In this document: one piece after another, positions 3,633 through 64,000 of the stretch
How the letters are laid out: each line of letters starts with the position of its first letter
How positions within the stretch are numbered: the stretch's first letter is position 1
NCBI GenBank assembly: GCA_977020255.1
Contig: CDROCS010000586.1
Span: forward strand, 124,001 to 188,000
Direction: 5' to 3'
Length of the DNA: 64,000 nucleotides
Origin: Obrimoposthia wandeli
Lineage: Eukaryota
The notes under the pieces: generated by a model
The model's input: only the letters and a program-made list of their open reading frames with translations
What the model was told of the DNA's origin: nothing
Databases searched by the model: none
Position numbers and translations under genes: made by a program

Positions 3633-6600
3633 GTGAGTATACAGAGTTCTGTGCCGGGGCCCATTTATGAGATCCCTTCGCTTTGCAGGTTCATGCACAC
3701 GATCTCAGAACTACCCTACCAACTTTTTCACTTCTTCCCAGCACGAGTAAGTGCTCCATATCCAGCTACAATTTTACTGTTCTTGTTTATCATTCTGAAA
3801 GACAAATAATTCTCTCACTCACAAACCCACTTTCATTTACTAACCTCTCACCCATTCACTCACTCCTCATTTCGCCACAACTCTCTTTTACCCGATATGC
3901 TTGGCTGACGACCGAATTTCAAACACTATTCGTAATTCCAAATAAATAAATTAAGCCCTCTTGAGGTCTCACTGTACTCTCAGGCGACCTTAGCAATGCT
4001 GAAATTAGTTTATTCTCAAGTTTGCTCATCCATGTCTCTCAATTTTTAGTTTTTCACTCCTGTTTAACGTTTCGTCATTTATCATTATTTTTCTGACAAT
4101 TTTCTGCTTTTACATCTATATCAATCTGCATATAAAATTGCTCATATTGAAATAATGATGAAAATATTATCAAATTATTTATTTTTCTTATTTTAATAAT
4201 GAAATATTTTTAAATTTAATTACAGTTACATAAATTAATTTATTGAAAGATATAGATTCTACAATTGAAACTTTATGTTCTAGTAGTTCAAACACCAAAT
4301 TATAAACTTATATTAAACCTTTTTAAAATTATTAAATGGTTACCTACTGACAATTGTGAGTAAACAATCTTCATCTAATATATCGATTTGTAAATTATTT
4401 AGGACACGTGATCTATGCTTTGAGCATTACTATAATCAATTTTACCTGTTCTACTGAATGTATCTTGCATTTACAATTTTTTAAAACAAGTTGAAATTAA
4501 TTGGTGTCGAAATAATTATGTCATAAGATTTGTGATGTAAATTTTCAGTATATCTCTATTAAACGACATAATATAATCGATGCATTTAATCTATATCGAT
4601 ATTTACAATGCAAATCTCATTCTTGTACGATCGAGTATTTTTAATTCTTTCCATTGCATCCGTAAATTACAGAATACAAATTTTATTCACAAATAGGTTA
4701 CTTATAGTCGTAAGTAATATATATTCTGTAGCTACAGAAATTTCTATTGCATTTCAAAATTTTTTCCTTCTCATTTAAGTTCGTGCCAATATTGATTTCT
4801 TTGTATTGAAATAAAATTTCAACACAAATAAAACGATTAAAAATTCCACCCGCTCAATTTAACTTTTGTGTTCCTATTTTAACAATACAGCAAAGAATCA
4901 GTACATACATCGTCCTCGATAAGCATATATATCGATCACAACTTATTGGCTGCTGAAAGTGCAATGTCGACTGTGTAGTACACATTAAATCAACCACTTC
5001 AGTCAGTTGACGTTTCTCCATCTCACAACAATAGTCTTGTTTGTAATCGGGTGATCTTGACTGCAGCAGCATCAGCATTGACAATAACACACATGCACCT
5101 CACACACATTCACACACAGAGACCTAGACAACAAACAAATCAAATCAATTGGAGTTATCAAATCTTTATTCATTACAATAATAAATATATAATTTCTGGG
5201 CCAAATGCTAATTAAATTGATATTGAATATTGAATATTGATTTTTCACATTTAAATTATATATTGTTGACAAATTTCCGACTCCAATCAAGGATTTCAAC
5301 TCTGTTCCTGTTCTCATTGGATTTGGTCGCTGTGGAATTATTGAGTGTGATAGACAGTCAAAAACTCGAATCAGATTAGTACGTGAATCCTATAATTTAT
5401 TATGTAATGTTTAAAAATATTTTTTGATTATATTTAACTAATTGAACAAGGTTTAAAGTGCAATTTGTATTCAATTACGATTTCCTATGTCTGATTACAA
5501 ATGACATGAATAAGTATTACTAATTCTTTGCAACAATATTTTTGAGCGCCTAAATGTGTAAATTTGTGTTAGATTATTGATTAAATTGTTGACACATTCG
5601 TCAATTATTTCTGTAAATTGGAATTGACTGTCAGTCTTCACTTTTGTTCGGATTTCGTCAGTTTTCCTGTGAAATTGTAATTTTTGTAATGTAGACAAAT
5701 GATCTAAACCGACGCAGATATTGAAGAGCTTACAAAACTATGGAAATTCTATGAAATTTAAGATAGGAAGAAAACGGATATATTTGGTAACAGTAATTTT
5801 TTAGATTGTTTTTTCAAATATCCGGATTTTAATTTTTTTGATAACGTATCGTTACAAAATAGTTTGTTGCGATTGACATTGAATATAATTCGTGTATCTA
5901 AACATAACGTTGTTTTATTAAAAAAACAAAAACAAGTATGACAACAATGTATTCAACTAGCACTGTTATCTTGTAACTTTTTGATATAATTCTCAAAGCT
6001 GCTTCCTGTTTTCCAAGATAGACATTATTCGTAATATTTCCTGAATAGCTGATTCTTGAGTTATGTTACAGTTTCTTTTATACACCAGTAAATCGTTGTG
6101 AAGACGTTGGTTAATTATTGACAAATTCTTTTATCGTGATGCATTTTATTGCAGTTCCGAACAAAACTGAATACAAGTTAACTGAATTTGTTTCGGGATG
6201 TTAAAATGAAATTTCCAATTCGTTGCTTACAATTTTGTCAACACCTGTTTTACAGGGATCTACTTTCTTTAAGTTTATATTTCGTGAAAGTGCAAATAAG
6301 ATCTATCGACCTATAATTGAGAATTTTATTCCGGTACCTTTTTTCGAGAAAGAAGCTCTAAATGCACGGTATAGAAATTGTACTAAATGTCAACATTTCC
6401 TCATCTCTCCTGCTTATTGTTTATCAGTTCATCGACACGGCAGCTAATGTAGGCTCAATACACAATGGCTAAATAATCAATACCTCACATCGCTAGATAC
6501 ACCAAAAACAAACGTTTCCACGACTAGCTGATGCTTTTGTTGTGAAGACTACTCGGTGTACAGCCTATTTCGTAGCAATATACAAAGTGTGTCAATTAGT

Positions 6601-46519: not shown

Positions 46520-47817
46520 CAGGGTGCGGAGAAAGTTCCCGATCGAATTTTGAAAATTGAATTAAAGATATTATTATTTAACTAAATTTATCCATTTTTG
46601 GCTTATTTTGTTTGTAGATACATATATTTATATGTTTCAGATCCAAATTTCCAAAAATTTAATTTGCATTTGTTTAAAATGAGTAAACGTGAGGCCATTA
46701 TCCAACTTCATTGCATGGGAAAGACGAACCCATAGATTGTTAAGATCTTAAAAGCTCCAAAATCAACAGTTCGGGATGCAGTAAACCGATACAAAGAACT
46801 TGGGACATCAGACGATCGTCCCAGAAGTGGACGCCCCGAACTGCTCGCACCTCAGCCAAAATAAAGGCCGTTAGGGAGCGAATAAGGAGGAACCCCAAAC
46901 GAAGAATGAAGAAAATGGCCAAGGACTTCAAAGTTGACGAAAAAACTGTCAGAACAATTGTCAAAGATGATCTCAAGTTATCCCCTTTCAAGATGACTAA
47001 CAGACAACAACTGACGGAATTGCAAAAACAGAAGAGGGTCGAAAGAGTCAAGATTCTCCTGAACCGAAAGAAGGATGGCACGGATGCTGGGGTAATTGTC
47101 TTTTCTGATGAAAAAATGTTCACTGTTGAGGCTCAGTTCAACTCGCAGAACGACAGAATTTTAGCTAAGAGTGCTGATAGCATTCCCAGTTCGGTAAAAT
47201 CCGTTTACCGTCGCCAAAAACCTAGCTCGGTAATGGTATGGGCAGCCATCTCTGAGAATTGGAGATCCTCTCTCATTTTTGTTAAAGATGGTGCTAAAGT
47301 TAACGCAAACTCGTACATCCAGGATATTTTGACTCCAGCCCATGTTGAAATGAAGAAACATTTCAAAAATGACCCTTTCACATTCCAACAGGACGGTGCG
47401 CCATCTCACACTGCGAACAAAACTCAGGACTGGTGTGAGAATCACCTTCCAGCTTTCTGGAGGAAGGAATTGTGGCCTCCTTCATCACCTGACTTGAACC
47501 CTCTGGACTTTTGTGTCTGGTCCATCTTGGAGAGAGAGGCCTGTGCTACAGCCCATGATAATACAGAAGCTTTGAAGAAGTCTCTTAAGCGGGAATGGGC
47601 CAAAATTCCCCAGGAATCCTTTCGTGCCGCAGTGAAGAGCTTCAGGGGGAGACTTGAGCGTGTAATTGAAGCCAAAGGCGGCCACATTGAAAAATAGATA
47701 GTATAAATGTTAAATAGAGCTCTAACAAATTGTGTGTGTTATTTTTTGTTTAATTTCAACCTTTATTAGTTGTTAAATTTAACGTTTTATGAGATCGGGG
47801 ACTTTCTCCGCACCCTG
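46520..47817 (+). mobile_element. Full-length Tc1/mariner maT (DD37D) transposon
   Basis: 25-bp TIRs CAGGGTGCGGAGAAAGT(T/C)CCCGATC with one mismatch; TA TSDs at 46518-19 and 47818-19. Confidence 0.93.
46679..47697 (+). pseudogene. maT transposase, disrupted at the 5' end
   Basis: ATG at 46679, TAG at 46733 and a frameshift near 46838. Intact FSDEK, QQDGAPSH and SSPDLNPLD, with 37 residues between the 2nd and 3rd Asp. Confidence 0.88.
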
Positions 47818-50805: not shown

Positions 50806-52157
50806 GAGAAATTCATAAAATAATAGTTGAGAAATAAGAGATAAAAGTAATAAATAAATAGAAGTCGTAAGAAGTAAGCAATTACATACTTGATAAGACG
50901 ACGGTTAGTCAAATAGAACTCACGTTTAAATTTGAATTAGTTTTGAATTTTAGTTTTGAATTGACTGACTTGTTTGGTGAAGTAAACCAAGAAGAAATTG
51001 AAGTTATTGAAGTTGCGAATCAAGGAGATATTGAAATTGCAAATTCAGAGAAAATTAAGGAAATTGATTTGAAGAATTTTGAAGAAATAGTTGAAAATAT
51101 GGCTAACGCAAATAATAATGCAGAAAATAATGTAGATAATATTAATACAGAACAGTTGGCACAAGTTTTGAATGCGACGTTTAAACCCAACTTTACCGGA
51201 TCTCTGCAGATCGCAAAGTTTAAAGGAGACGAGGAAAGTATTTTGTGACTTCCTGGCGGAATATTCGAGTTGCGCAGATGTGCAAGGATAGAACGAAAGA
51301 GAAAAATGTGTCCGCGTACATGCGCATTTGACAGGATTAGCACTTAAAGTGTATAAACACATAATAAAAGCAGAACGTGAAGATTAGGAAACATTGGAAA
51401 AATGCTTTTATAGGAAAATTGGTGTTGTAAGATTTAGCAAACGTGAATAAACGAATTTTGAGAGAACATAAATAGAAACATAACAAGAGAGTGAATGAAT
51501 ACATGAATGCATCTGTTGGGGTTTCTATACGAAACTTGGTATAGATCCTCTTGAATGCGGAGGGCCCCAACGTGAGTTCGATTAGAAGCAGGTCTTAAAG
51601 TTGGTCGTGGCCTACTTAGTTTTATGGTTGCCTAATCTCTTGTACTATCTGAAGGTATTTGATTTGATGTCTCTTATTCTGAAGGGTGCAAAAACAACTT
51701 GTTCTAATGTAGGAAATTGTTTATTTGTAATTCACGAACTAAAACACAACAATACGTTTATGTACGTATTTTCTAAAAAGTATAGTAAAAATTCCTAAGA
51801 CTTCTGTAAGTCTCTACAACAAGTGGGGATGAACCACGTATCGATTTTATGTTAAGGGTGATCGAGTTTTTAGAGTCGTTCCTCTAACTCGCGAATAAGC
51901 TCAAGTTAAGATTTTCAATTTAATGTGACTCTTATGTCAAACTCTAACTTTAATTCCCAATTTAACTTTAATGGCAAACTTTTATCTTTATACCAAAACT
52001 ATGGCAATTTAGACAAAACTTCTCTTCAAACTTTTATGTCAATTTAGACAAAAACTTCTCTTCAAACTTTTATGTCAATTTAGACAAAAACTTCTCTTCA
52101 AACTTTTATGTCAATTTAGACAAATTAGACAAATTGTAATGTCAACTTTATGACAAT

Positions 52158-52408
52158 TTTAAAGGAAAAAACTTCTTTTATTTACTTCAAATTCTGTCCA
52201 ACTTTATAATGACTTTAAGGGAAAAAACTTCTTTTATTTACTTCAAATTCTGTCCAACTTTATGATAACTTTAAGGGAAAAAACTTCTTTTATTTACTTC
52301 AAATTCTGTCCAACTTTATGATAACTTTAAGGGAAAAAACTTCTTTTATTTACTTCAAATTCTGTCCAACTTTATGATAACTTTAAGGGAAAAAACTTCT
52401 TTTATTTA
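52158..52408. repeat. 56-bp tandem array (~4.5 copies) inside the solo LTR; preceded by ~3 copies of the 35/36-bp unit (52009-52125)
   Basis: TTTAAGGGAAAAAACTTC anchors at 52158, 52214, 52270, 52326, 52382. Confidence 0.9.
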
Positions 52409-53879: not shown

Positions 53880-54700
53880 GAGAAATAAGGAAATCATAAG
53901 AACTAAGTTGGCATTAGCTATTACGAATCCAGACATGGTGGCACCACTATTGCTTCTAGACGAAGAAATATTTGCTAAATCAATGGGATAAGTAATGTAT
54001 ACGTACAGGGATAAAAAAGTACTGGTAAAATTGAGAGAAACAACTCGATGTACAAGTGAATTACCAGTAACATATAACTTAAAACCACTTTTTGTAGAAC
54101 CAATATCAAGGATGATACTTCCTATTGACACTCCATCTAAGGAGATAAGTTGCTCTAATATAATGGCACCTGAATATAGATTATTGAGAGACTTATGGAT
54201 AATATTACCTGACCGTAAGCGAACAGGAACTCCAGAGAGAATAAAAATGACGACACCCTAAGAAAAATGGAGTTCAAAGCTGTAACGAATATTGAAAGTG
54301 CAGGTTTATATAATTAGAAAAATCTAAAAGCGGCCTGGAATGAAATAATGTTTCCAGTAAGAAGGGCCAGAGTACTAACGGAAATGGTACATCGTGCATT
54401 ACCACCAAGAGCTACATATGCGAATTTTGATATGATATTGTCGGCAAGTCATTTCAAGGAAGTGGCACATCAGACACTTAGGAAAATGTGGGGAAAATTC
54501 TTTGTATTAAGACAATTTTTAAAGTATAATAGGAATTTTTGATATAATTATATTTGTACAGGTAATTATAGCTCAGGTGTTGTCCACATATAGTTTGTAC
54601 AGGATAACTGGAATCACCTGGCAGCTTATAATTGGATATTTTTTCTATTTCTAGCAAAATATCTAATGCACCATCGTCACGAAAATGAATTGCGAGCTCT
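53880..54700 (+). pseudogene. env: C-terminal half of a chuvirus-like (class III, gB-like) envelope glycoprotein
   Basis: KLALAITNPD...G*VMY...VKLRETTRCTSELPVTYN...FVEPISRMI...EISCS..APEY...IMFPVRRARVL...MWGKF, then hydrophobic IGIFDIIIFVQVIIAQVLSTYSLYRITGITWQL. Motif order matches chuvirus-type G from memory; stops and frameshifts present. Confidence 0.7.
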
Positions 54701-55033
54701 CAAGAAGGAGCAACATCAAACTAGAACTAGAACCGTCGAGACGACAATGACGACGATAATGATAGTTTGGGAGACTATGCGAAGATACCAAAAACAGGGC
54801 ATCCAAAAATTCCACTGTAAAACAAGGAAGAACCAGTACCAAATCTTTATCCAATGAAGAAACTAAAGGAAGAAAAAGAAAAGTTCAAAAGAGGAATTTT
54901 AATGATAAGATGGCCTAGAGTGAACTATAATAAGCTTCTATAGGAAAAAGAGAAAAAAGATAATTCCAGAAGAATTCTGAAGTCTAGGATATCTAATGAG
55001 AATCCGAATGCTCCACCACAAGTAGCAGTAACA

Positions 55034-55330
55034 ATGAACGGAAGAGAATATATTTCCGAGGTCGATACTGGATCTGCAGTATCAGTACTGAGTAAAGAAA
55101 TCTTGTCATCAAAAGAACTAGAAAAAGTGTGTCATAGGAAAAAAACATTTGTCAACGTAAATAGAACATATGTAGTATCAGAAGGAATACTGAAATGTAA
55201 ATTAACTATTGATGGAAGAGAACTGCTGCTAAATGCAAGAATATTCACCTATTGTGGTAGTCCAGTCATGATTGGAATGGATGTGATACGAATGTTCGAA
55301 GGAATAATAATATTAATAAACAACAAGAGT
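55034..55330 (+). pseudogene. Retropepsin (A2 aspartic protease) of element H
   Basis: VTMNGREYISEVDTGSAVSVLS and VMIGMDVI motifs. Confidence 0.85.
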
Positions 55331-56619
55331 ACTAAGAACAACAATTCAGTGAGAGAGATAAAGATGCTGGGAAGACCTATGAATGAAGGAAAAGACATAA
55401 CTAGTTTCAAGATAGAAAACTCGTACCGAAACAAGACATAGGAAGTGCTAGTGAATTCGATACTTCACTACAAAGGAGTAAATAGCGGACACAAGTGATC
55501 TTTATTGATTGCTTCTTTTTAGAGAGGTTGGATAAAAGGAAGAGAGAAACTAGTCCACAGAAAAGGAAAATTACTCAGTTGTTGTTGGTTGTAAAATCGT
55601 CAAGCGTGAAAAGAATCCCAGTCGACACAAATATTCAGAAGTAAATCTAGGTAAGAACCCCTTAGTTAAGTAGCGTCTATTTAATGTCTACTTTCTAAAA
55701 AAATTAGAGAAGAAGAAAAGGTGGTGAATTATCTATTATCGAGAAAATCGTATAAAAGGAAAATTATACAAGAAGAAATTGACTGACTCTTTCTAGGAAA
55801 TTATAGAAGAAAATTGCTTGACTCTAAAATTCGAAACAAGCAAACATCTCTCTAAAAAGGTAAGCAAAGGACGCAAACCAAAACCACTAAAATAATCAAG
55901 AAACTTTCACAGAATACTCATTGCGACAGAAGGCAATCGGATCGGCCAAATTTGAGGAGGAGTCGTGACAAGGATATCTAGACGCCGGAATCTCAACGGA
56001 AGAGAATCCTGGACTCTGTAGACCTACCGGAAAGTTAATCATCATATTTAGAGAGATGTGAGTTGTTGTGGAAAAGATATCTTTAGAATTGTTGTTCACA
56101 CAAGTGATTTGTAATTTTTATCATTTTGTTGGGGTTTCTATACGAAACTTGGTACAGATCCTCTTGAGTGCGGAGGGCCCCAACGTGAGTTCGATTAGAA
56201 GCAGGTCTTAAAGTTGGTCGTGGCCTACTTAGTGTTATGGTTGCCTATCTCTTGTACTATCTGAAGGTATTTGATTTGATGTCTCTTATTCTGAAGGGTG
56301 CAAAAACAACTTGTTCTAATGTAGGAAATTGTTTATTTGTAATTCACGAAACTAAAACACAACAATACGTTTATGTACGTATTTTCTAAAAAGTATAGTA
56401 AAAATTCCTAAGACTTCTGTAAGTCTCTACAACAAGTGGGGATGAACCACGTATCGATTTTATGTTAAGGGTGATCGAGTTTTTAGAGTCGTTCCTCTAA
56501 CTCGCGAATAAGCTCAAGTTATAGATTTTCAAATTACTGTGACTTTTATGTCAAACTCTAACTTTAATTCCCAATTTAACTTTAATGGTAAACTTTTATC
56601 TTTATACCAAAACTATGGC

Positions 56620-57365
56620 AATTTAGACAAAACTTCTCTTCAAACTTTTATGGCAATTTAGACAAAAACTTCTCTTCAAACTTTTATGGCAATTTAGACA
56701 AAAACTTCTCTTCAAACTTTTATGGCAATTTAGACAAAAACTTCTCTTCAAACTTTTATGGCAATTTAGACAAAAACTTCTCTTCAAACTTTTATGGCAA
56801 TTTAGACAAAAACTTCTCTTCAAACTTTTATGGCAATTTAGACAAAAACTTCTCTTCAAACTTTTATGGCAATTTAGACAAAAACTTCTCTTCAAACTTT
56901 TATGGCAATTTTAGACAAAACTTCTCTTCAAACTTTTATGGCAATTTAGACAAAAACTTCTCTTCAAACTTTTATGTCAATTTAGACAAAACTTCTCTTC
57001 AAACTTTTATGGCAATTTAGACAAAAACTTCTCTTCAAACTTTTATGTCAATTTAGACAAAACTTCTCTTCAAACTTTTATGGCAATTTAGACAAAAACT
57101 TCTCTTCAAACTTTTATGGCAATTTAGACAAAAACTTCTCTTCAAACTTTTATGGCAATTTAGACAAAAACTTCTCTTCAAACTTTTATGGCAATTTAGA
57201 CAAAAACTTCTCTTCAAACTTTTATGTCAATTTAGACAAAACTTCTCTTCAAACTTTTATGGCAATTTAGACAAAAACTTCTCTTCAAACTTTTATGGCA
57301 ATTTAGACAAAAACTTCTCTTCAAACTTTTATGGCAATTTAGACAAAAACTTCTCTTCAAACTTT
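56620..57365. repeat. 35/36-bp tandem array (~21 copies) inside the 3' LTR
   Basis: Unit TTTAGACAAAA(A)CTTCTCTTCAAACTTTTATG(G/T)CAA. Confidence 0.95.
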
Positions 57366-57366
57366 A

Positions 57367-57620
57367 TGACAACTTTAGGACAATTTAGACAATTTTAGTG
57401 TCAAACTTTATGACAACTTTAGGACAATTTAGACAATTTTAGTGTCAAACTTTATGACAACTTTAGGACAATTTAGACAATTTTAGTGTCAAACTTTATG
57501 ACAACTTTAGGACAATTTAGACAATTTTAGTGTCAAACTTTATGACAACTTTAGGACAATTTAGACAATTTTAGTGTCAAACTTTATGACAACTTTAGGA
57601 CAATTGAGACAAATTTTAGT
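57367..57620. repeat. 44-bp tandem array (~5.6 copies) inside the 3' LTR
   Basis: TGACAACTTTAGGACAATTTAGACAATTTTAGTGTCAAACTTTA at 57367, 57411, 57455, 57499, 57543, 57587. Confidence 0.95.
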
Positions 57621-58755
57621 AATCTCTCTTACGTTTTTTGTCTCGAGGTTGAGATATCCTGAAGCGTTCCGGAATATACTGAGATCGAACACAAAAACCG
57701 ATCGGCTGACTGAATTTGAATTGCCGAATGAAAATTCGCTGATATAGTGCTGACTGGAACAACAATTGAACTGGTTCACAAGCTCTGCTCCGTGATAGAT
57801 CGAGTTCGGTTGAATAGAATCGATTTGTATGTCGCTGTTACGACGTTGCCCAAATCCGTGATAGATTGATCTTTAAGTCTTGTGTGACGAAACGTGAGAA
57901 TTTCCCAATCAGTTAGTTTGCTAAATCAATAATTAAATCTCCAAGTCTATCACAAAACCACCTGGTTGCTGCTAGGGACAATGTTGGTTTTCCTTGGTTT
58001 TTTGTGGTCTATTTCTCGGTAGATTGGGATATTGCTTTTTCCGGTTGTGTATTTCGTTTTCTTGTCGACGACTTTTATAGTCGATTCTGCAACTCCTGTC
58101 TGTCAGTCAGCAATGTCGACAGCGGTTTCAACTGGAGTCTTTTGCGGCAGCTGAAAATTAAGTTTAAACACTCCAATTTAACTGCACGAAAATGTGCTTA
58201 CCTTGATTGACGTTCGATTTTGATTGACGTTCGATATTGTTCCCTTTTTTCTTCTTTGCTTAGTTAATGTGTCTTTTTGTTGCACTTTTGGGTTAATTAA
58301 TCTAACTTTTATACATTTCACATTATACACGACCTTCGTGGTCCTCCTAATTTTTACCCTAAATTCCACTAATTTCAATTCTAAAACTAAAATTAATATT
58401 TAATTTAATTTTCAACCTTGCCCTCAAGGATTTTCATTTTAGTATTTAATCGACTAAAATATTTAAATTTCTTAATTCTCAAACCTAACATACCTCGGGG
58501 GTTCCAAAAAAGTTACGTCCCCGGAACGTATCGATTTTACTTAAACAAGCCTCTGGCTGTTGATTTTAGGTTCATCCCTACAAAATCAATCATTCAACTT
58601 CAACAAACATGCCCAAAACAAAATTTCTCAAAATCCCGGTTTTTAGTGGGAAACATAATGTATAATTTGGAGCAAGTCTCAGACTATACATTATTATCTA
58701 TACACAAAACTACATGCATAACCAAGGATTAGGAAGGAAAGAAGGGAGGAAAGGG

Positions 58756-59286
58756 TCAATTGTCATAAGTTAGGTCAATTGTAATTGTCGGCTGGTTCCG
58801 ACTGGCCAGGTAGCGCAGAACCTGCTCCAGGGGTAGGTCGGGAAAGGACGGACTGTCCCCGTTGTACAGGTGTAGTTGTTGGCTCCGGGTTAGGTGTGGG
58901 CTCTCGACAAACAGGTCGAAATACTGCCCGTTCATCGCGTGATTTTCTATCCAGAGACGTCTGGCCTGGAACCACGAGTGGCAGTCTCGACTAGACCGCC
59001 ATCTCTCGCGGATGCCCAGTTGTGTGTCGCGCCGGCGTGCGAGACATACGTAGCATTGGCAATGTATGCCACCAATGCAGCTGGCAGGCGATCGGGTGCC
59101 CTTGTGCCTTCCACGGCTCTGGAGCGTCCATTTGCCAAAGGGTGTCCGGCACAGTGGACATGTGATATGGCCGGGGGGTCGAGCCTTGGCCCACAAATAG
59201 AGGCACTCCTCGTGGAATTTGTGACGGCAGCCGACAGGGGATGCTGATACCGCCCAAATCTTCTCCATGCATACAGAGCACTTCAT
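58756..59286 (-). CDS. RING-H2 E3 ligase-like ORF C (RING + C-x5-CxC-x2-C + C-terminal SIM-like ITIDLT)
   Basis: CSVC-x13-CRHKFHEEC-LYLW...CPLC; acceptor ttattttcttatgcag directly abuts the ATG at 59286. Confidence 0.88.
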   Translation of the reverse strand: MKCSVCMEKIWAVSASPVGCRHKFHEECLYLWAKARPPGHITCPLCRTPFGKWTLQSRGRHKGTRSPASCIGGIHCQCYVCLARRRDTQLGIRERWRSSRDCHSWFQARRLWIENHAMNGQYFDLFVESPHLTRSQQLHLYNGDSPSFPDLPLEQVLRYLASRNQPTITIDLTYDN

Positions 59287-59626
59287 CTGCATAAGAAAAT
59301 AACTCCTTTCAATTTGGGGTTCACCGTTCTCATCGTTAATTTAAATTTTATTTCAAAACGAATCCTTAGTTATCTAATCCTACCGAGTTTTGTTTCGATT
59401 TTAGGCATGTTTACGCATTCACACTAAGCATAAAAAATTGTCTTTTTAGAAATTCAGTATAATAATTACAATTTCAGTTAAACATCATACATAAAAATGG
59501 TAATGGTCAATTTACAGTTCACAAGATTATATAATTATGATTACAATTATGGTAGCTAATTTATCGCGGTATGCGATACACAGGGTAGTTCATGATGTCA
59601 CGTTCAAGTCAGAAAGTTACCTTCGA

Positions 59627-59932
59627 TTATTGTTGGGAATTGGGCTGGCCTGTGCTTCGCTCCTCCACGCAGAACGAGCACCAGCAATCGCAGATGGTTT
59701 TCCAGCAGTGTACGATGGGTACCACTGCTTGGAGGCTGTCTTGGTTGTACACGTAGTGTACTGAGAAGGTCGCTCTGCACATCGGGCAGGTTGGGAAGTC
59801 GAGGGGATTGTTGCTGTTTGCGATGGGGATCCACGTCTCGAGGCATTCGACGTGGAAAAGGTGGTCGCAGTTGTTGGGCTTGGTGTAGAAGTCCACGATG
59901 CCCTCGTAGCAGATGGAACATTCTCCAGACAT
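59627..59932 (-). CDS. RING-H2 E3 ligase-like ORF B (RING + C-x6-CWC-x2-C)
   Basis: CSIC-x13-CDHLFHVEC-LETW...CPMC; acceptor ccctcccacag 2 nt before the ATG. Confidence 0.88.
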   Translation of the reverse strand: MSGECSICYEGIVDFYTKPNNCDHLFHVECLETWIPIANSNNPLDFPTCPMCRATFSVHYVYNQDSLQAVVPIVHCWKTICDCWCSFCVEERSTGQPNSQQ

Positions 59933-59992
59933 TACTGTGGGAGGGTTGATGTTGAATTTGGGCTCGATTGAGGACTGGTGGTTGTGTGATGT

Positions 59993-60292
59993 TTACACAA
60001 AAGTGGTCTGATTTTGTCGATCTGACAAACAGTAATAACACCAACACTCTCCGAAATTCTTCCAACAGAATACCACCTGTACATATACATCTTCTTGGTT
60101 GGTTTCTAACATGATGAATCTTGCGAATTGTCTTCTGCATACAGGGCAACAAGGGTATGTTGGATGTCCGAACTGTCCATAAGTTCTGATCCATGTCGAT
60201 AAACATTCCTCGTGGTGTAAATGGTTGCAGGTTTCGGGTCTTGTTCTTCGTTCGGTTAGATCTTCCAAACATATTGGGCATTCTTCGGACAT
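59993..60292 (-). CDS. RING-H2 E3 ligase-like ORF A (RING + C-x6-CWC-x2-C)
   Basis: MSEECPIC-x13-CNHLHHEEC-LSTW...CPVC; acceptor tgtatttag 1 nt before the ATG at 60292. Confidence 0.88.
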   Translation of the reverse strand: MSEECPICLEDLTERRTRPETCNHLHHEECLSTWIRTYGQFGHPTYPCCPVCRRQFARFIMLETNQEDVYVQVVFCWKNFGECWCYYCLSDRQNQTTFV

Positions 60293-60415: not shown

Positions 60416-63400
60416 TCATATCTTGATGGGAGGCGGAGGTAAGGGTCGCAATTCCACTTCCTCCATGGTGGGTGTGTCACAGCATCGCAATCCTTCGCAT
60501 TTTCGTCGTATTCCTGGGCATACTTGACTGCCTTTTACGCACACGATTGTCAATAAAACCACTGCTGTTGACACTACGGCCATTCCAATTAGGGCATTGA
60601 CCGCTGTTATTCCGCTGTCTGATGATTTATAATCGTACTTCATTTTGTTGTTTGTCGGTTCGAATGACATTTCCATGGGTTTTGATCGGTTTCCATGTAT
60701 TATGTCCGATTTTCTAAAAATTCGGGGATTTGGGTGTTTTGTTTCTGATGGAACAGGTATTATTATTTTGGATTGGAAATGATGTTTGGGATCTAGTGGG
60801 ATCGTTCCCTGCACTCTTGTCCTCTTATTAATTGTACTTTTGTTTCTGGGATTTAGCTCTTTTTCTTTCGCTTCTGTCTTTGTTCTGATCACTGTCTGGT
60901 TTTTGGAATGGCGTTTACTTTCGATTACCTTTGCCTTCTTTTTGACTAGGATTGGTCTTTTGGGAATGATTTTCCTGGGTTTGATACTTATACCGGATTT
61001 ACGAAATCGACGGTTCTGGTATCTTAGAGTTATGTAGAATATTTCACCTGTTATTATCATGATTATGGTCGAGGTCTCTGTAGTATTACTGGCAATTCGA
61101 TTACACAGACATTCTGTGTTAAAATGTGGTACTAACATTTGGCTTTGGATTTCGAATCTGATTCCGCCATCTGGGTTGGGACACATTACTGTCACCCTGT
61201 CAGTTTCTAACAATCTGAAAAATATTCTAACGGAATTCCATACGGTTTTACGTCGTCTGCCTGTGATCATAATCCTGTCGACAATTTTCCAGATGCGCTC
61301 ATCTCTAGGCAATATTAATGACTTTGTTCGGATACTTTGGATAATCCGCTTCCTCTTTGATATTGTTATCCGTAGGTATAACACTCTTTCATGATACAAT
61401 AATATTAAATTGTAAACGGGTGTATTTTGGTCGATTTTTATTCTGACCTGTCGGATGACATACAATTTCTGATCGATATTGTCAGTTGCTGACGTCTGTA
61501 GATGAATGTCTACTACGTGATTTGTTTTTAGTAGGGGGATTTCTATGTATACTGCCCGTATTACGTCTTGTCTCCATTTACTGATCATGATCTCATAACT
61601 AGCCTTGGTAGTGGTGATTTGTATGATCAGCATGATTCCTATGATCGTTCGATTCCTAAACTCAGGAACTTCAATGAAACAAGTCAAATTACTCATATAG
61701 TACGGTCTTTCCTCGATGTGTTCATATATCGTTGGCTGGTATTCTGGTGCTGGTTCATCTAGAAATGGTGGACTTGGTATAATTGTGTTGAAATTTTGTA
61801 AGTTCATTTGACCTGTTCGTCTTGCGAGATCATGCCGTTTCTTTTTTGATCTCAACTCTAACTTTGTACAACAAAACAAGATGAGCAATATTAATATTAT
61901 AAATCCAATGATCAGTGCGAGTATTGGATTAACCAATTCTAGAATACCGTAACGTACTGCTGGTATTCCTTTACTCTTGATGGTTAATATTTTAAATTTG
62001 TGTGCACTTTGGTTGGACATGTCACTGAGAAGCACTATTTTAGTTTGTCCAAATATGTAGTCTTCACATGTGACAACACTAACTCCATAATGTCCATTAA
62101 GTGTTATCATTTCGGTCGCTGGGACTATACACATTCGTCCTGGACATCCTTTTACACACATGATCATCACGGCTCTACTGTGGGATGTCTTGATTATTTC
62201 TAGGGTGTTGTCTAGATTTCTCAAATGTAAATTATATTCGGATAGTGTCATCAATTCGGCTTTACTGGTTGGCATGGCTTGCAGTACCAATCCAATTACT
62301 ACTCCATAGATCAATCCTTGTACAACGGTGCACAGGGCCTTGACCGACCTTTTGCAAAGGGTTTTAATTATCAATCGTTTGAGAGATATCTGTTTCTGAT
62401 TGGATCGTTTTGTTGTCTGTCGTTGTTTTGACATCTCCTCGATTCCATCTCTTCCGATAATCAACTGTACCGGTTTACCTTGTATCATCAACTTTCCGAA
62501 TCCATTTTTGGCGGACAAGCATGTTTTATGTCCTTCCATCGTTTCAATTATCACTCTCTTACTTCCATACTCACGTGTTTTGATGACATCGCCGTCGAAT
62601 ATATACGTTGGTCCTTTTGTATCAGCATCTTTTTGTATTTCCTTTACAACTCGTTTTCTTCGCTTGCATCCGGCGAATGTTGTTGATATTTGGTCAAGTG
62701 TGCGTTGTCGGTCAGCTTCGTAATCTATCCGAAATTGATTCAGTATTCTGTTTTGTGGGTAAAATATCGCTTCATTTACTATGTTGTCTTCGATCCTTTC
62801 GTCTAGATACACAAGCACTTTGTTCGTTGGTCCATTTGGTCTTTTCATCTTTACAAACTGAAATCTTTTACTGTCGGTTCTCATAGATCGAAGACATTTT
62901 CGGATGATCCACACATCAATTAGTCCTAACAATACTAATAACATCATCAGTGCCGGCGTATGGTACTGTATGGTGTAGTTGTGGATTTCGTTGAACCAGG
63001 AACTATTTCCGTGGTTGGAGCCTATCTCCTGTGCTCCCGTTATCGGCATTAAACAACTTAACAAGCCTATCGCTAGCAATCTTTGGTATTGAAAGCTGGG
63101 CACTGTTGTTGTAGCTTCATTTGTTTCTCGTTGTTGTTTCCTCTTTTCGGTGTATTTCTCTATTTCTCGAACGAGTAACGGTTTGAATTCCGTATTTGGT
63201 CTATTCTGTTTGATGTAGACCATCGCTTCCTCTGGCGTGTGACCATGGTACTCTACCAACAAGGATACACCTATGGTAGGCGCTAACATTGTACCTTTTT
63301 TCTGATATATCAGAACGCCGTTTCCTTCTGTGACTTCGGCTTGGATGGTTTGAGTCAATTTCGTCAGATGTTGTTGTGCATCGTTTATTTCTCGATTGGA

Positions 63401-64000
63401 AGCATGTATGTATCGAGTGGTGTCATCTTCAGTATTTTGACACAGACTAATTATCTCGTTTCCGACTTCAACAATGTTGATTACTCGGTTGATACTGTGG
63501 AACTTTAATCCAGCAGTATCTATATCTCCTGGATGACATAAAAATACTTTTGGCATTATCTGTGTAATTTTATCGACTCCGGCTAAAAATAACCCGGTTA
63601 ATGATAATGCTTGGAGGAAATTCTTTTCCTTTGGGTCCTCAGGAATGTCGTCCATCCGTCTTTGTTCTTGCAACAGAAGTTGGTAATTTGCCAACTGTCC
63701 CAAAAAATTAAGATTTGGGTTTGCAATACTTCTTCTCTCCTGTAGGTATTTTAGCGCTTCTAGTACCTGCATTCGTCTAGTCTTTATTAGGTATGCTAAT
63801 ACTAGAGTTGCTGATCGAGAAATTCCTTTCTGACAATGTACCAACACTTTTCCTCGGTTCCGGAGTTCTCTGTGAAGTATTTCGTTTGTTTCTACGAACC
63901 ATTCGAGAAGATTAGCGTCCATTGAGTCTTTTACTCTTAATGTCATAGCTCTGATTGTCTGATATTGTGATTTGTGATTCATTGTAACGTTGATCACGTA
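60416..64000 (-). CDS. C-terminal >1193 aa of a retroelement-borne polyprotein: dual-specificity phosphatase, pseudo-phosphatase, three signal peptide/TM modules; open past the window edge
   Basis: Uninterrupted frame (TAC at 64000-63998 is in frame). VHCQKGISRSATLVLAYL at 63838-63812; a second DSP fold at aa ~144-283; alternating signal-like and TM segments. Lies between the window edge and the 3' LTR. Confidence 0.9.
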   Translation of the reverse strand, partial: YVINVTMNHKSQYQTIRAMTLRVKDSMDANLLEWFVETNEILHRELRNRGKVLVHCQKGISRSATLVLAYLIKTRRMQVLEALKYLQERRSIANPNLNFLGQLANYQLLLQEQRRMDDIPEDPKEKNFLQALSLTGLFLAGVDKITQIMPKVFLCHPGDIDTAGLKFHSINRVINIVEVGNEIISLCQNTEDDTTRYIHASNREINDAQQHLTKLTQTIQAEVTEGNGVLIYQKKGTMLAPTIGVSLLVEYHGHTPEEAMVYIKQNRPNTEFKPLLVREIEKYTEKRKQQRETNEATTTVPSFQYQRLLAIGLLSCLMPITGAQEIGSNHGNSSWFNEIHNYTIQYHTPALMMLLVLLGLIDVWIIRKCLRSMRTDSKRFQFVKMKRPNGPTNKVLVYLDERIEDNIVNEAIFYPQNRILNQFRIDYEADRQRTLDQISTTFAGCKRRKRVVKEIQKDADTKGPTYIFDGDVIKTREYGSKRVIIETMEGHKTCLSAKNGFGKLMIQGKPVQLIIGRDGIEEMSKQRQTTKRSNQKQISLKRLIIKTLCKRSVKALCTVVQGLIYGVVIGLVLQAMPTSKAELMTLSEYNLHLRNLDNTLEIIKTSHSRAVMIMCVKGCPGRMCIVPATEMITLNGHYGVSVVTCEDYIFGQTKIVLLSDMSNQSAHKFKILTIKSKGIPAVRYGILELVNPILALIIGFIILILLILFCCTKLELRSKKKRHDLARRTGQMNLQNFNTIIPSPPFLDEPAPEYQPTIYEHIEERPYYMSNLTCFIEVPEFRNRTIIGIMLIIQITTTKASYEIMISKWRQDVIRAVYIEIPLLKTNHVVDIHLQTSATDNIDQKLYVIRQVRIKIDQNTPVYNLILLYHERVLYLRITISKRKRIIQSIRTKSLILPRDERIWKIVDRIMITGRRRKTVWNSVRIFFRLLETDRVTVMCPNPDGGIRFEIQSQMLVPHFNTECLCNRIASNTTETSTIIMIITGEIFYITLRYQNRRFRKSGISIKPRKIIPKRPILVKKKAKVIESKRHSKNQTVIRTKTEAKEKELNPRNKSTINKRTRVQGTIPLDPKHHFQSKIIIPVPSETKHPNPRIFRKSDIIHGNRSKPMEMSFEPTNNKMKYDYKSSDSGITAVNALIGMAVVSTAVVLLTIVCVKGSQVCPGIRRKCEGLRCCDTPTMEEVELRPLPPPPIKI

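Follow-up and report, generated by a model that had tools for sequence, protein, structure and literature searches.

Three predicted signal-ectodomain-membrane units in the tail of a Burro-like Gypsy polyprotein from Obrimoposthia wandeli

The element and its polyprotein frame

The window (the whole 64,000-nucleotide stretch analysed, G000:C586:124001-188000 of a 1.35-Gb genome) holds on its minus strand the terminal part of a high-copy Burro-like Gypsy LTR retrotransposon which, followed through the neighbouring DNA, measures 24,569 bp (~24.6 kb). Its 3' LTR (56127-58490, minus strand) is paired with a 5' LTR beyond the window (G000:C586:202265-204695); the two 2.4-kb TG...CA repeats are 99.3% identical over aligned bases and the target duplication is the 4-bp ATTT. 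At least 40 copies of the polyprotein tail studied here were present at 98-99% identity (40 scored of 5862 candidates). The LTR contains a tandem array with a unit of ~36 bp (56614-57620), and a primer-binding-site-like TGG... lies 8 bases inside the 5' LTR (G000:C586 202240-202264). Downstream, the element is flanked by part of an LTR from its own family and by an older (80%) fragment of Env and protease (51514-52179 and 53883-55495). Elsewhere in the window, a plus-strand 317-aa ORF (46744-47697) is, judged by eye, what we take to be Tc1/mariner transposase-like.

In coding direction, the element begins with a Gag-like region, a Zn knuckle and weak ubiquitin-like and Bcl-2-like regions, followed by an internal signal, a Monjiviricetes fusion glycoprotein and a TM. 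Its middle part comprises protease, BIR, RING, a second protease, RT, RNase H and integrase, with the Ty3/Gypsy PR-RT-RNase H-integrase order present by Pfam, and its last part runs through three copies of a beta-rich domain, a dual-specificity phosphatase (DSP), a pseudo-DSP, the three units studied here, three separate RING ORFs and the LTR. Among the cargo, BIR and RING matched Pfam at E 2.5e-9 and 1.6e-12; the ubiquitin (E 0.008), Bcl-2 (E 0.07) and viral Bcl-2 (E 0.06) matches are located before Env as in Burro, with scores short of the cut-off. The ~110-aa beta-rich domain, found three times between integrase and phosphatase just outside the window (G000:C586 about 188470-189600; pairwise z 5-9), had no Pfam match. 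Env lies upstream of the three units, beyond the window, and is preceded by an internal signal peptide of its own. It is a Monjiviricetes-type fusion protein that matched PF24664 at E 2e-23 and 6e-71, a Chuviridae/Monjiviricetes-like fusion glycoprotein that has signal and TM and precedes Pol. The original prediction had set the three units against a classical single env, an opposition that disappears with a fusion Env upstream in the same polyprotein.

The planarian giant Gypsy element Burro (GYPSM1) is described, in the excerpted text of PMC6431247, as one huge ORF with Gag, a Zn knuckle, ubiquitin-like and Bcl-2-like regions, an in-frame mononegavirus-type Env between Gag and Pol, BIR and PR-RT-RNH-IN, present in thousands of copies of >30 kb. 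The present element resembles it in its giant ORF, the Env in frame between Gag and Pol, the BIR plus RING (IAP) cargo and the overall order. It differs in length (24.6 kb versus >30 kb) and in giving no Pfam match at E 0.05 to MATH, ankyrin or dUTPase, and its DSP and pseudo-DSP, three post-integrase units and three RING ORFs are extras not named for Burro in that excerpt. On account of the short length and the absence of these three domains it is filed as Burro-like and not as one of Burro1-4, a likeness drawn from the described layout. Burro1 expression is treated in PMC8532177, and the consulted portion of a Dugesia genome preprint does not mention Burro.

The three units had been assigned to an ORF starting at 63082. 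This is not a start: the minus-strand frame continues out of the window to G000:C586:189248, through two phosphatase domains. The window copy of the element is split into eight frames, and we assign the tail region (60416-64000, minus strand) to the C-terminal part of one Gag-Env-Pol polyprotein because other copies are open across these breaks. Of 21 near-identical copies, selected by likeness to the tail region in a way that favours unbroken copies, 5 have one uninterrupted frame spanning the integrase core through TM3, and 18 have one that spans SP1 through TM3. Two other copies have natural open frames that overlap: one covers 4645 aa from Gag to SP1, the other 4335 aa from a point before Env to the C-terminus. 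None of the copies examined had a full-length open polyprotein; pieced from overlapping open copies, Gag, Env and Pol lie in one chain of ~5,400 residues.

The in-window part of the first phosphatase (63659-64000, minus strand) is a dual-specificity phosphatase domain with the motif HCQKGISRS at 63838-63812 (Pfam DSPc E 1e-40). It is followed by a second DSPc stretch (63149-63616, minus strand; z 6.0 to the first, dN/dS 0.07) without the catalytic Cys and Arg, likely a pseudophosphatase. Between the polyprotein stop and the LTR, most copies carry three tandem small RING-finger ORFs (58756-60292, minus strand), which in the window copy lie at 59993-60292 (zf-RING_2 E 5e-9), 59627-59932 (E 9e-9) and 58756-59340 (stop to stop; E 3e-7). 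In one older copy, L046, TM2 runs directly into the RING ORFs, without unit 3 (5960-6161).

Layout and conservation of the three units

Three internal signal-like segments, predicted earlier, were found in a single minus-strand frame at 63082-63032, 62314-62258 and 61651-61601, with small residues kept at -3 and -1, and the three TM-like segments were found at 62959-62900, 61933-61865 and 60595-60536. The layout of three signal-ectodomain-TM units therefore stands as described, but the units are not repeats in sequence (no pair above z 2.5; hhalign of ectodomain 2 against ectodomain 3, 0.1%). All coordinates that follow are on the minus strand.

Unit 1 opens with SP1 (63032-63082), a predicted internal signal peptide ending ...PITGA before Q, with -1 Ala in 69/72 and -3 Thr in 68/72. 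It leads into a predicted lumenal loop of ~24 aa with the sequon NSS (62960-63031), TM1 with a conserved Asp (62900-62959; 65/70) and a predicted cytosolic domain of ~185 aa (62339-62899; dN/dS 0.19) that had no family, PDB or Atlas match. Unit 2 begins with SP2 (62258-62338), a long signal/anchor whose hydrophobic run extends from 62338 and which ends ...PTSKA before E (-1 Ala 76/78, -3 Ser or Gly 76/78). Ectodomain 2 (61934-62257) has 108 aa, four conserved Cys and the sequon NQS, is predicted with low confidence to be mostly beta, and had no fold match. TM2 (61865-61933; dN/dS 0.07) has Cys-Cys at its end and a basic run after it, and the predicted cytosolic loop 2 (61652-61864) bears the tyrosine motifs PEYQPTIYEHI...RPY, the three Tyr being present in 74/76, 76/76 and 76/76 copies. 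Unit 3 starts with SP3 (61601-61651), a predicted internal signal peptide ending ...TTTKA before S (-1 Ala 75/76, -3 Thr 74/76, while -2 swaps K/E). It continues with the beta-rich part of ectodomain 3, which has three conserved Cys (61019-61600), a basic, indel-prone stalk with two conserved sequons (60596-61018), TM3 (60536-60595) and a predicted cytosolic tail that is Cys-rich, basic and contains polyproline, with the stop codon (60416-60535).

On the Kyte-Doolittle scale (11-mers), these six segments rank first to sixth among the peaks of the 1610-aa stop-to-stop frame (2.59, 3.17, 2.81, 3.75, 2.55 and 2.89), with the next at 2.05. In 100 other Gypsy polyproteins, peaks of at least 2.7 occurred at 0.02 per 1000 aa; four of the six segments pass this line, as do the relatives' signals. 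SP1 and SP3, whose h-regions are short, fall slightly below it, yet score above the signal of the element's Env (2.15). Every TM is followed within 15 residues by 4-6 K/R. Before the signals there are six K/R at SP2, one at SP1 and two at SP3, giving strong n-region charge in SP2 only. By sequence, SP1-3 follow the signal-peptidase pattern of basic n-region, hydrophobic h-region, polar c-region and small -3/-1 residues. The -1 Ala and small -3 residue are kept across 81 loci while -4, -6, -2 and +1 swap between subfamilies; because copies are 85-89% identical around the sites, this is modest to moderate evidence only. Env offers an internal control: in the element and in its relatives, its conserved AYDC/FDC start comes immediately after an internal signal.

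The same segments could be read as uncleaved signal-anchors, which would make the tail one six-pass membrane protein freed from Pol by the element's protease alone. SP2, with 21-25 uncharged residues, can span a membrane. The 11-residue cores of SP1 and SP3, however, are short for stable anchors, a polar stretch ending in small-X-Ala follows each core and is kept across subfamilies, and the Env signal is of like design. We consider this arrangement unlikely and infer that signal peptidase would cut the three units.

Sequons gave a divided picture. Of those named in the original prediction, NSS (62/67), NQS (76/79) and NRS (70/72, with S/T swap) are kept at the homologous column, as is N1469 (65/70), but NYT (27/71), NTT (34/74) and NQT (0/63, private to the window copy) are poorly kept. 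Since the side predicted to be cytosolic also has two retained sequons (58/76 and 59/76), sequon conservation discriminates weakly.

Homology searches assigned none of the units to a known family. A phmmer search of aa 720-1610 against 1.84 billion representatives returned 0 matches at E 0.001, with no homologue outside the genome, and the ESM Atlas gave nothing usable for ectodomain 3 and cytosolic domain 1. Pfam searches with single modules gave weak matches only (poxvirus 2L E 0.15, WBP-1 E 0.04, orthoreovirus p10 E 0.16). PDB profile matches to thioredoxin (E 0.3) and ARPC3 (E 0.5, over a 45-aa stretch of cytosolic domain 1 at about 62790-62660) were judged to be chance, and ectodomain 3 had none. 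A reading of cytosolic domain 1 as a retroviral-type aspartic (pseudo-)protease was rejected, with no DTG or profile match (z about -0.2, hhalign 0.3%). The original prediction had expected unknown folds and proposed AlphaFold with Foldseek as the check: no known fold was found, but the models were of low confidence (pLDDT 31 for the whole region, 43 for ectodomain 2). Foldseek of both against pdb and viral structures gave nothing at E 0.001 and the best VIA score was Z 3.8, from models too weak for more.

Lack of a homologue outside the genome would suit a captured host sequence that is decaying and functionless. The substitution pattern makes this very improbable. Over aa 715-1610, shared variants in the 21 near-identical copies gave pN/pS 0.16, against 0.88 and 1.08 in shifted frames, and in comparison with older subfamilies at dS 0.3-0.5 twelve modules had dN/dS 0.07-0.34 and the basic stalk, the loosest module, had 0.58. 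The three-unit region is under purifying selection.

A membrane unit after the integrase in related elements

An RT-integrase query listed 120 proteins, from which we took as relatives 20 that were unnamed or env-bearing, at 46-58% identity, and used the other 100 as control. The RT tree took in 19 of the 20 (P0040 was left out) and grouped these, a second family from the same genome and the element in one clade with support 99/97. Two or more post-integrase hydrophobic peaks were present in 15 of the 20 relatives (spacing 103-381 aa), one in 3 and none in 2, one of the peakless relatives ending 96 aa past the integrase. Two such peaks occurred in 1 of the 100 control Gypsy matches, or 1 of the 23 with at least 300 aa after the integrase, which is a rough null because the controls are often fused gene models.

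In P0102 and P0113 an Ig domain starts within 20 residues of the post-integrase signal (Ig_3 E 1.5e-5 and 4e-8). Twelve relatives carry a 90-aa repeat in their ectodomains, in 1-3 copies each and 24 units in total, whose profile matched neogenin best in the PDB (E 3e-4), mainly on the C-terminal strand motif used as seed. We take its PDB matches to be FN3 domains of cell-surface proteins; fn3 itself had no Pfam match. P0074 and P0077 have another ectodomain type, short and Cys-rich. The post-integrase tail ends S/T-x-V, presumably a PDZ-ligand pattern, in 7 of 15 relatives (P0026, P0030, P0036, P0040, P0043, P0045 and P0046), and three more end in V. P0046 has an extra signal-ectodomain-TM unit ahead of the protease (aa 48-225), and in P0036 and P0040 the stretch from integrase to membrane unit holds additional proteases and ankyrin repeats. 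P0073, a clade polyprotein filed under a Flavobacteriaceae MAG, probably represents DNA of a eukaryotic retroelement that was binned with bacterial sequence.

The second high-copy family of the same genome (loci L095 1-6453, L097 (G000:C1810), L056, L096 and L103-L108; at least 124 copies, 124 scored of 7807 candidates) encodes Gag-signal-Env-TM-PR-RT-IN plus one signal-ectodomain-TM unit in a single 2889-aa frame, followed by a small ORF and then a separate DEDD-type exonuclease ORF. Unit 3 did not match this family's unit (0.3%). Against the clade repeat, ectodomain 3 scored 1.8 bits, equalled by 150 of 2000 shuffles (hhalign 0.6% and 3.8%), with the alignment carried by V-x-CP and C-x-C residues. 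Because this weak likeness to the FN3-like repeat is not significant, unit 3 is equated with the clade unit by position and layout. Together these comparisons point to an apparently undescribed clade-wide membrane unit after the integrase, one per polyprotein in most relatives and three in the present element.

The relatives also bear on whether the third domain is lumenal at all. SP3 is the weakest of the six peaks, ectodomain 3 has 20% K+R, and three of its five sequons are poorly kept or private, so that SP3 might be a mere hydrophobic beta-strand, with the basic third domain cytosolic (possibly nucleic-acid binding) and TM3 a tail anchor. Against this, the other strands of the domain reach at most 1.99, the tail after TM3 is basic and Cys-rich, a sign of a cytosolic side, and the two stalk sequons are the well-kept N1469 and NRS. 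The relatives' ectodomains are also basic, at 12-18% K+R, which answers the earlier concern that a K/R stretch is odd for a lumenal region; a basic lumenal stalk appears usual in the clade. We regard a cytosolic third domain as improbable, slightly more so than the six-pass arrangement, and keep unit 3 as a signal-led, lumenal unit.

Predicted products and possible roles

We favour, with reasonable rather than high confidence, a reading in which the region is the tail of a Burro-like Gypsy polyprotein whose three units are threaded through the ER and cut by signal peptidase into extra membrane proteins beside the fusion Env. Alternating topology and release are supported by hydropathy, flanking charge, the -3/-1 residues, Env's internal signal and the Ig/FN3-like domains that relatives have at the corresponding place. 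The chain would start in the cytosol and cross the membrane four times by an internal signal (Env and SP1-3), returning each time via a TM, while the element's own proteases would free the cytosolic enzymes. Signal peptidase would cut on the lumenal side, and every upstream product would retain the signal that follows it as a C-terminal anchor; this path, the lumenal cut and the retained anchors follow from general topology rules. The product before the SP1 cut would be a tail-anchored phosphatase/pseudophosphatase pair. Unit 1 would be a two-pass protein, nearly all cytosolic with ~24 lumenal residues, and unit 2 a two-pass receptor-like protein with a tyrosine-motif loop and the look of a signalling receptor mimic. 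The original prediction of several type I proteins is supported in its alternating topology but would apply to unit 3 alone, with beta domains on a stalk, since the following signal would stay on units 1 and 2 and unit 1 is almost without ectodomain.

Flavivirus, alphavirus and bunyavirus structural polyproteins alternate internal signals with stop-transfer anchors, and their upstream products retain the following signal as a further anchor. Neither sequence nor structure searches found homology of the three units to RNA-virus glycoproteins, and the element differs further in having no RdRp, in being reverse-transcribing and in placing enzymes between two membrane-crossing blocks. The three-unit tail likely works like an RNA-virus structural polyprotein, but is not one.

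Retroelements offer closer comparisons. In Atlas virus, a hookworm belpaovirus, one Gag-Pol-Env polyprotein carries a variable GN-like glycoprotein and a GC-like fusion glycoprotein in tandem behind Pol (excerpts of PMC9094657). This virus is a BEL/Pao element with class II fusion and both glycoproteins adjacent and captured together, whereas here the fusion protein precedes Pol and the additional proteins have no relation to viral glycoproteins. In bdelloid rotifer LTR elements, ORF3 encodes TM segments or a DEDDy exonuclease as separate ORFs that replace env downstream of pol (partial text of PMC5408684). The likeness lies in extra membrane or exonuclease cargo after pol, including the DEDD-type exonuclease ORF of the second family; the units described here differ in being in frame with Pol and additional to Env. 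The gB-type GAG-ENV-POL errantiviruses share the gene order, a Chuviridae-like glycoprotein of HSV-gB type and many near-identical copies (>98% identical), and their entry mechanism is stated to be unknown because herpes gB needs gD, gH and gL (PMC13524379, in part). That study's LTR calling left out LTRs >14 kb apart, and its main text, in the portion available, does not mention a post-integrase membrane protein (fibronectin, immunoglobulin, accessory and phosphatase: 0 occurrences). More broadly, no description of an in-frame membrane unit after the integrase was found in the running text consulted on Burro, errantiviruses, Atlas virus and rotifer elements.

Our preferred candidate role for unit 3 is as attachment or adhesion partner of the gB-type Env, because it sits where the clade has its FN3/Ig-type protein; units 1 and 2 are probably additions specific to this family and would act on host signalling. 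With the same topology and cleavage, the products could also act in the host cell only, as decoy or signalling receptors alongside the phosphatase, IAP, Bcl-2-like and RING cargo, with no part in entry. We hold this to be a substantial though lesser possibility: it suits the BIR, RING and DSP domains of the element, the three invariant tyrosines of loop 2 and the S/T-x-V tail ends of relatives, and the IAP of Burro1 is reported, as cited in PMC13465017, to protect host stem cells. It accounts less well for a unit that is kept over the whole env-bearing RT clade, is nearly absent from other Gypsy matches and is in frame with Env, hence in fixed ratio to it. Domains on a stalk, moreover, would suit an attachment protein.

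Extending the attachment role of unit 3 to the clade, we suggest only tentatively a two-component surface, with a conserved fusion Env before Pol and a fast-changing, host-like (FN3/Ig) attachment protein after the integrase, both cut by signal peptidase. The latter would be the expected partner of a gB-type fusogen, here tripled and coupled to an anchored phosphatase pair. If the polyprotein that carries Env has a conserved place for a second, variable surface protein, that protein would be a candidate for the entry partner. The arrangement would also imply that a capsid, a fusion protein, enzymes and several membrane proteins come from one ~5,400-residue chain with four ER crossings, and that host modulation at the membrane may be added to the anti-apoptotic cargo known for Burro.
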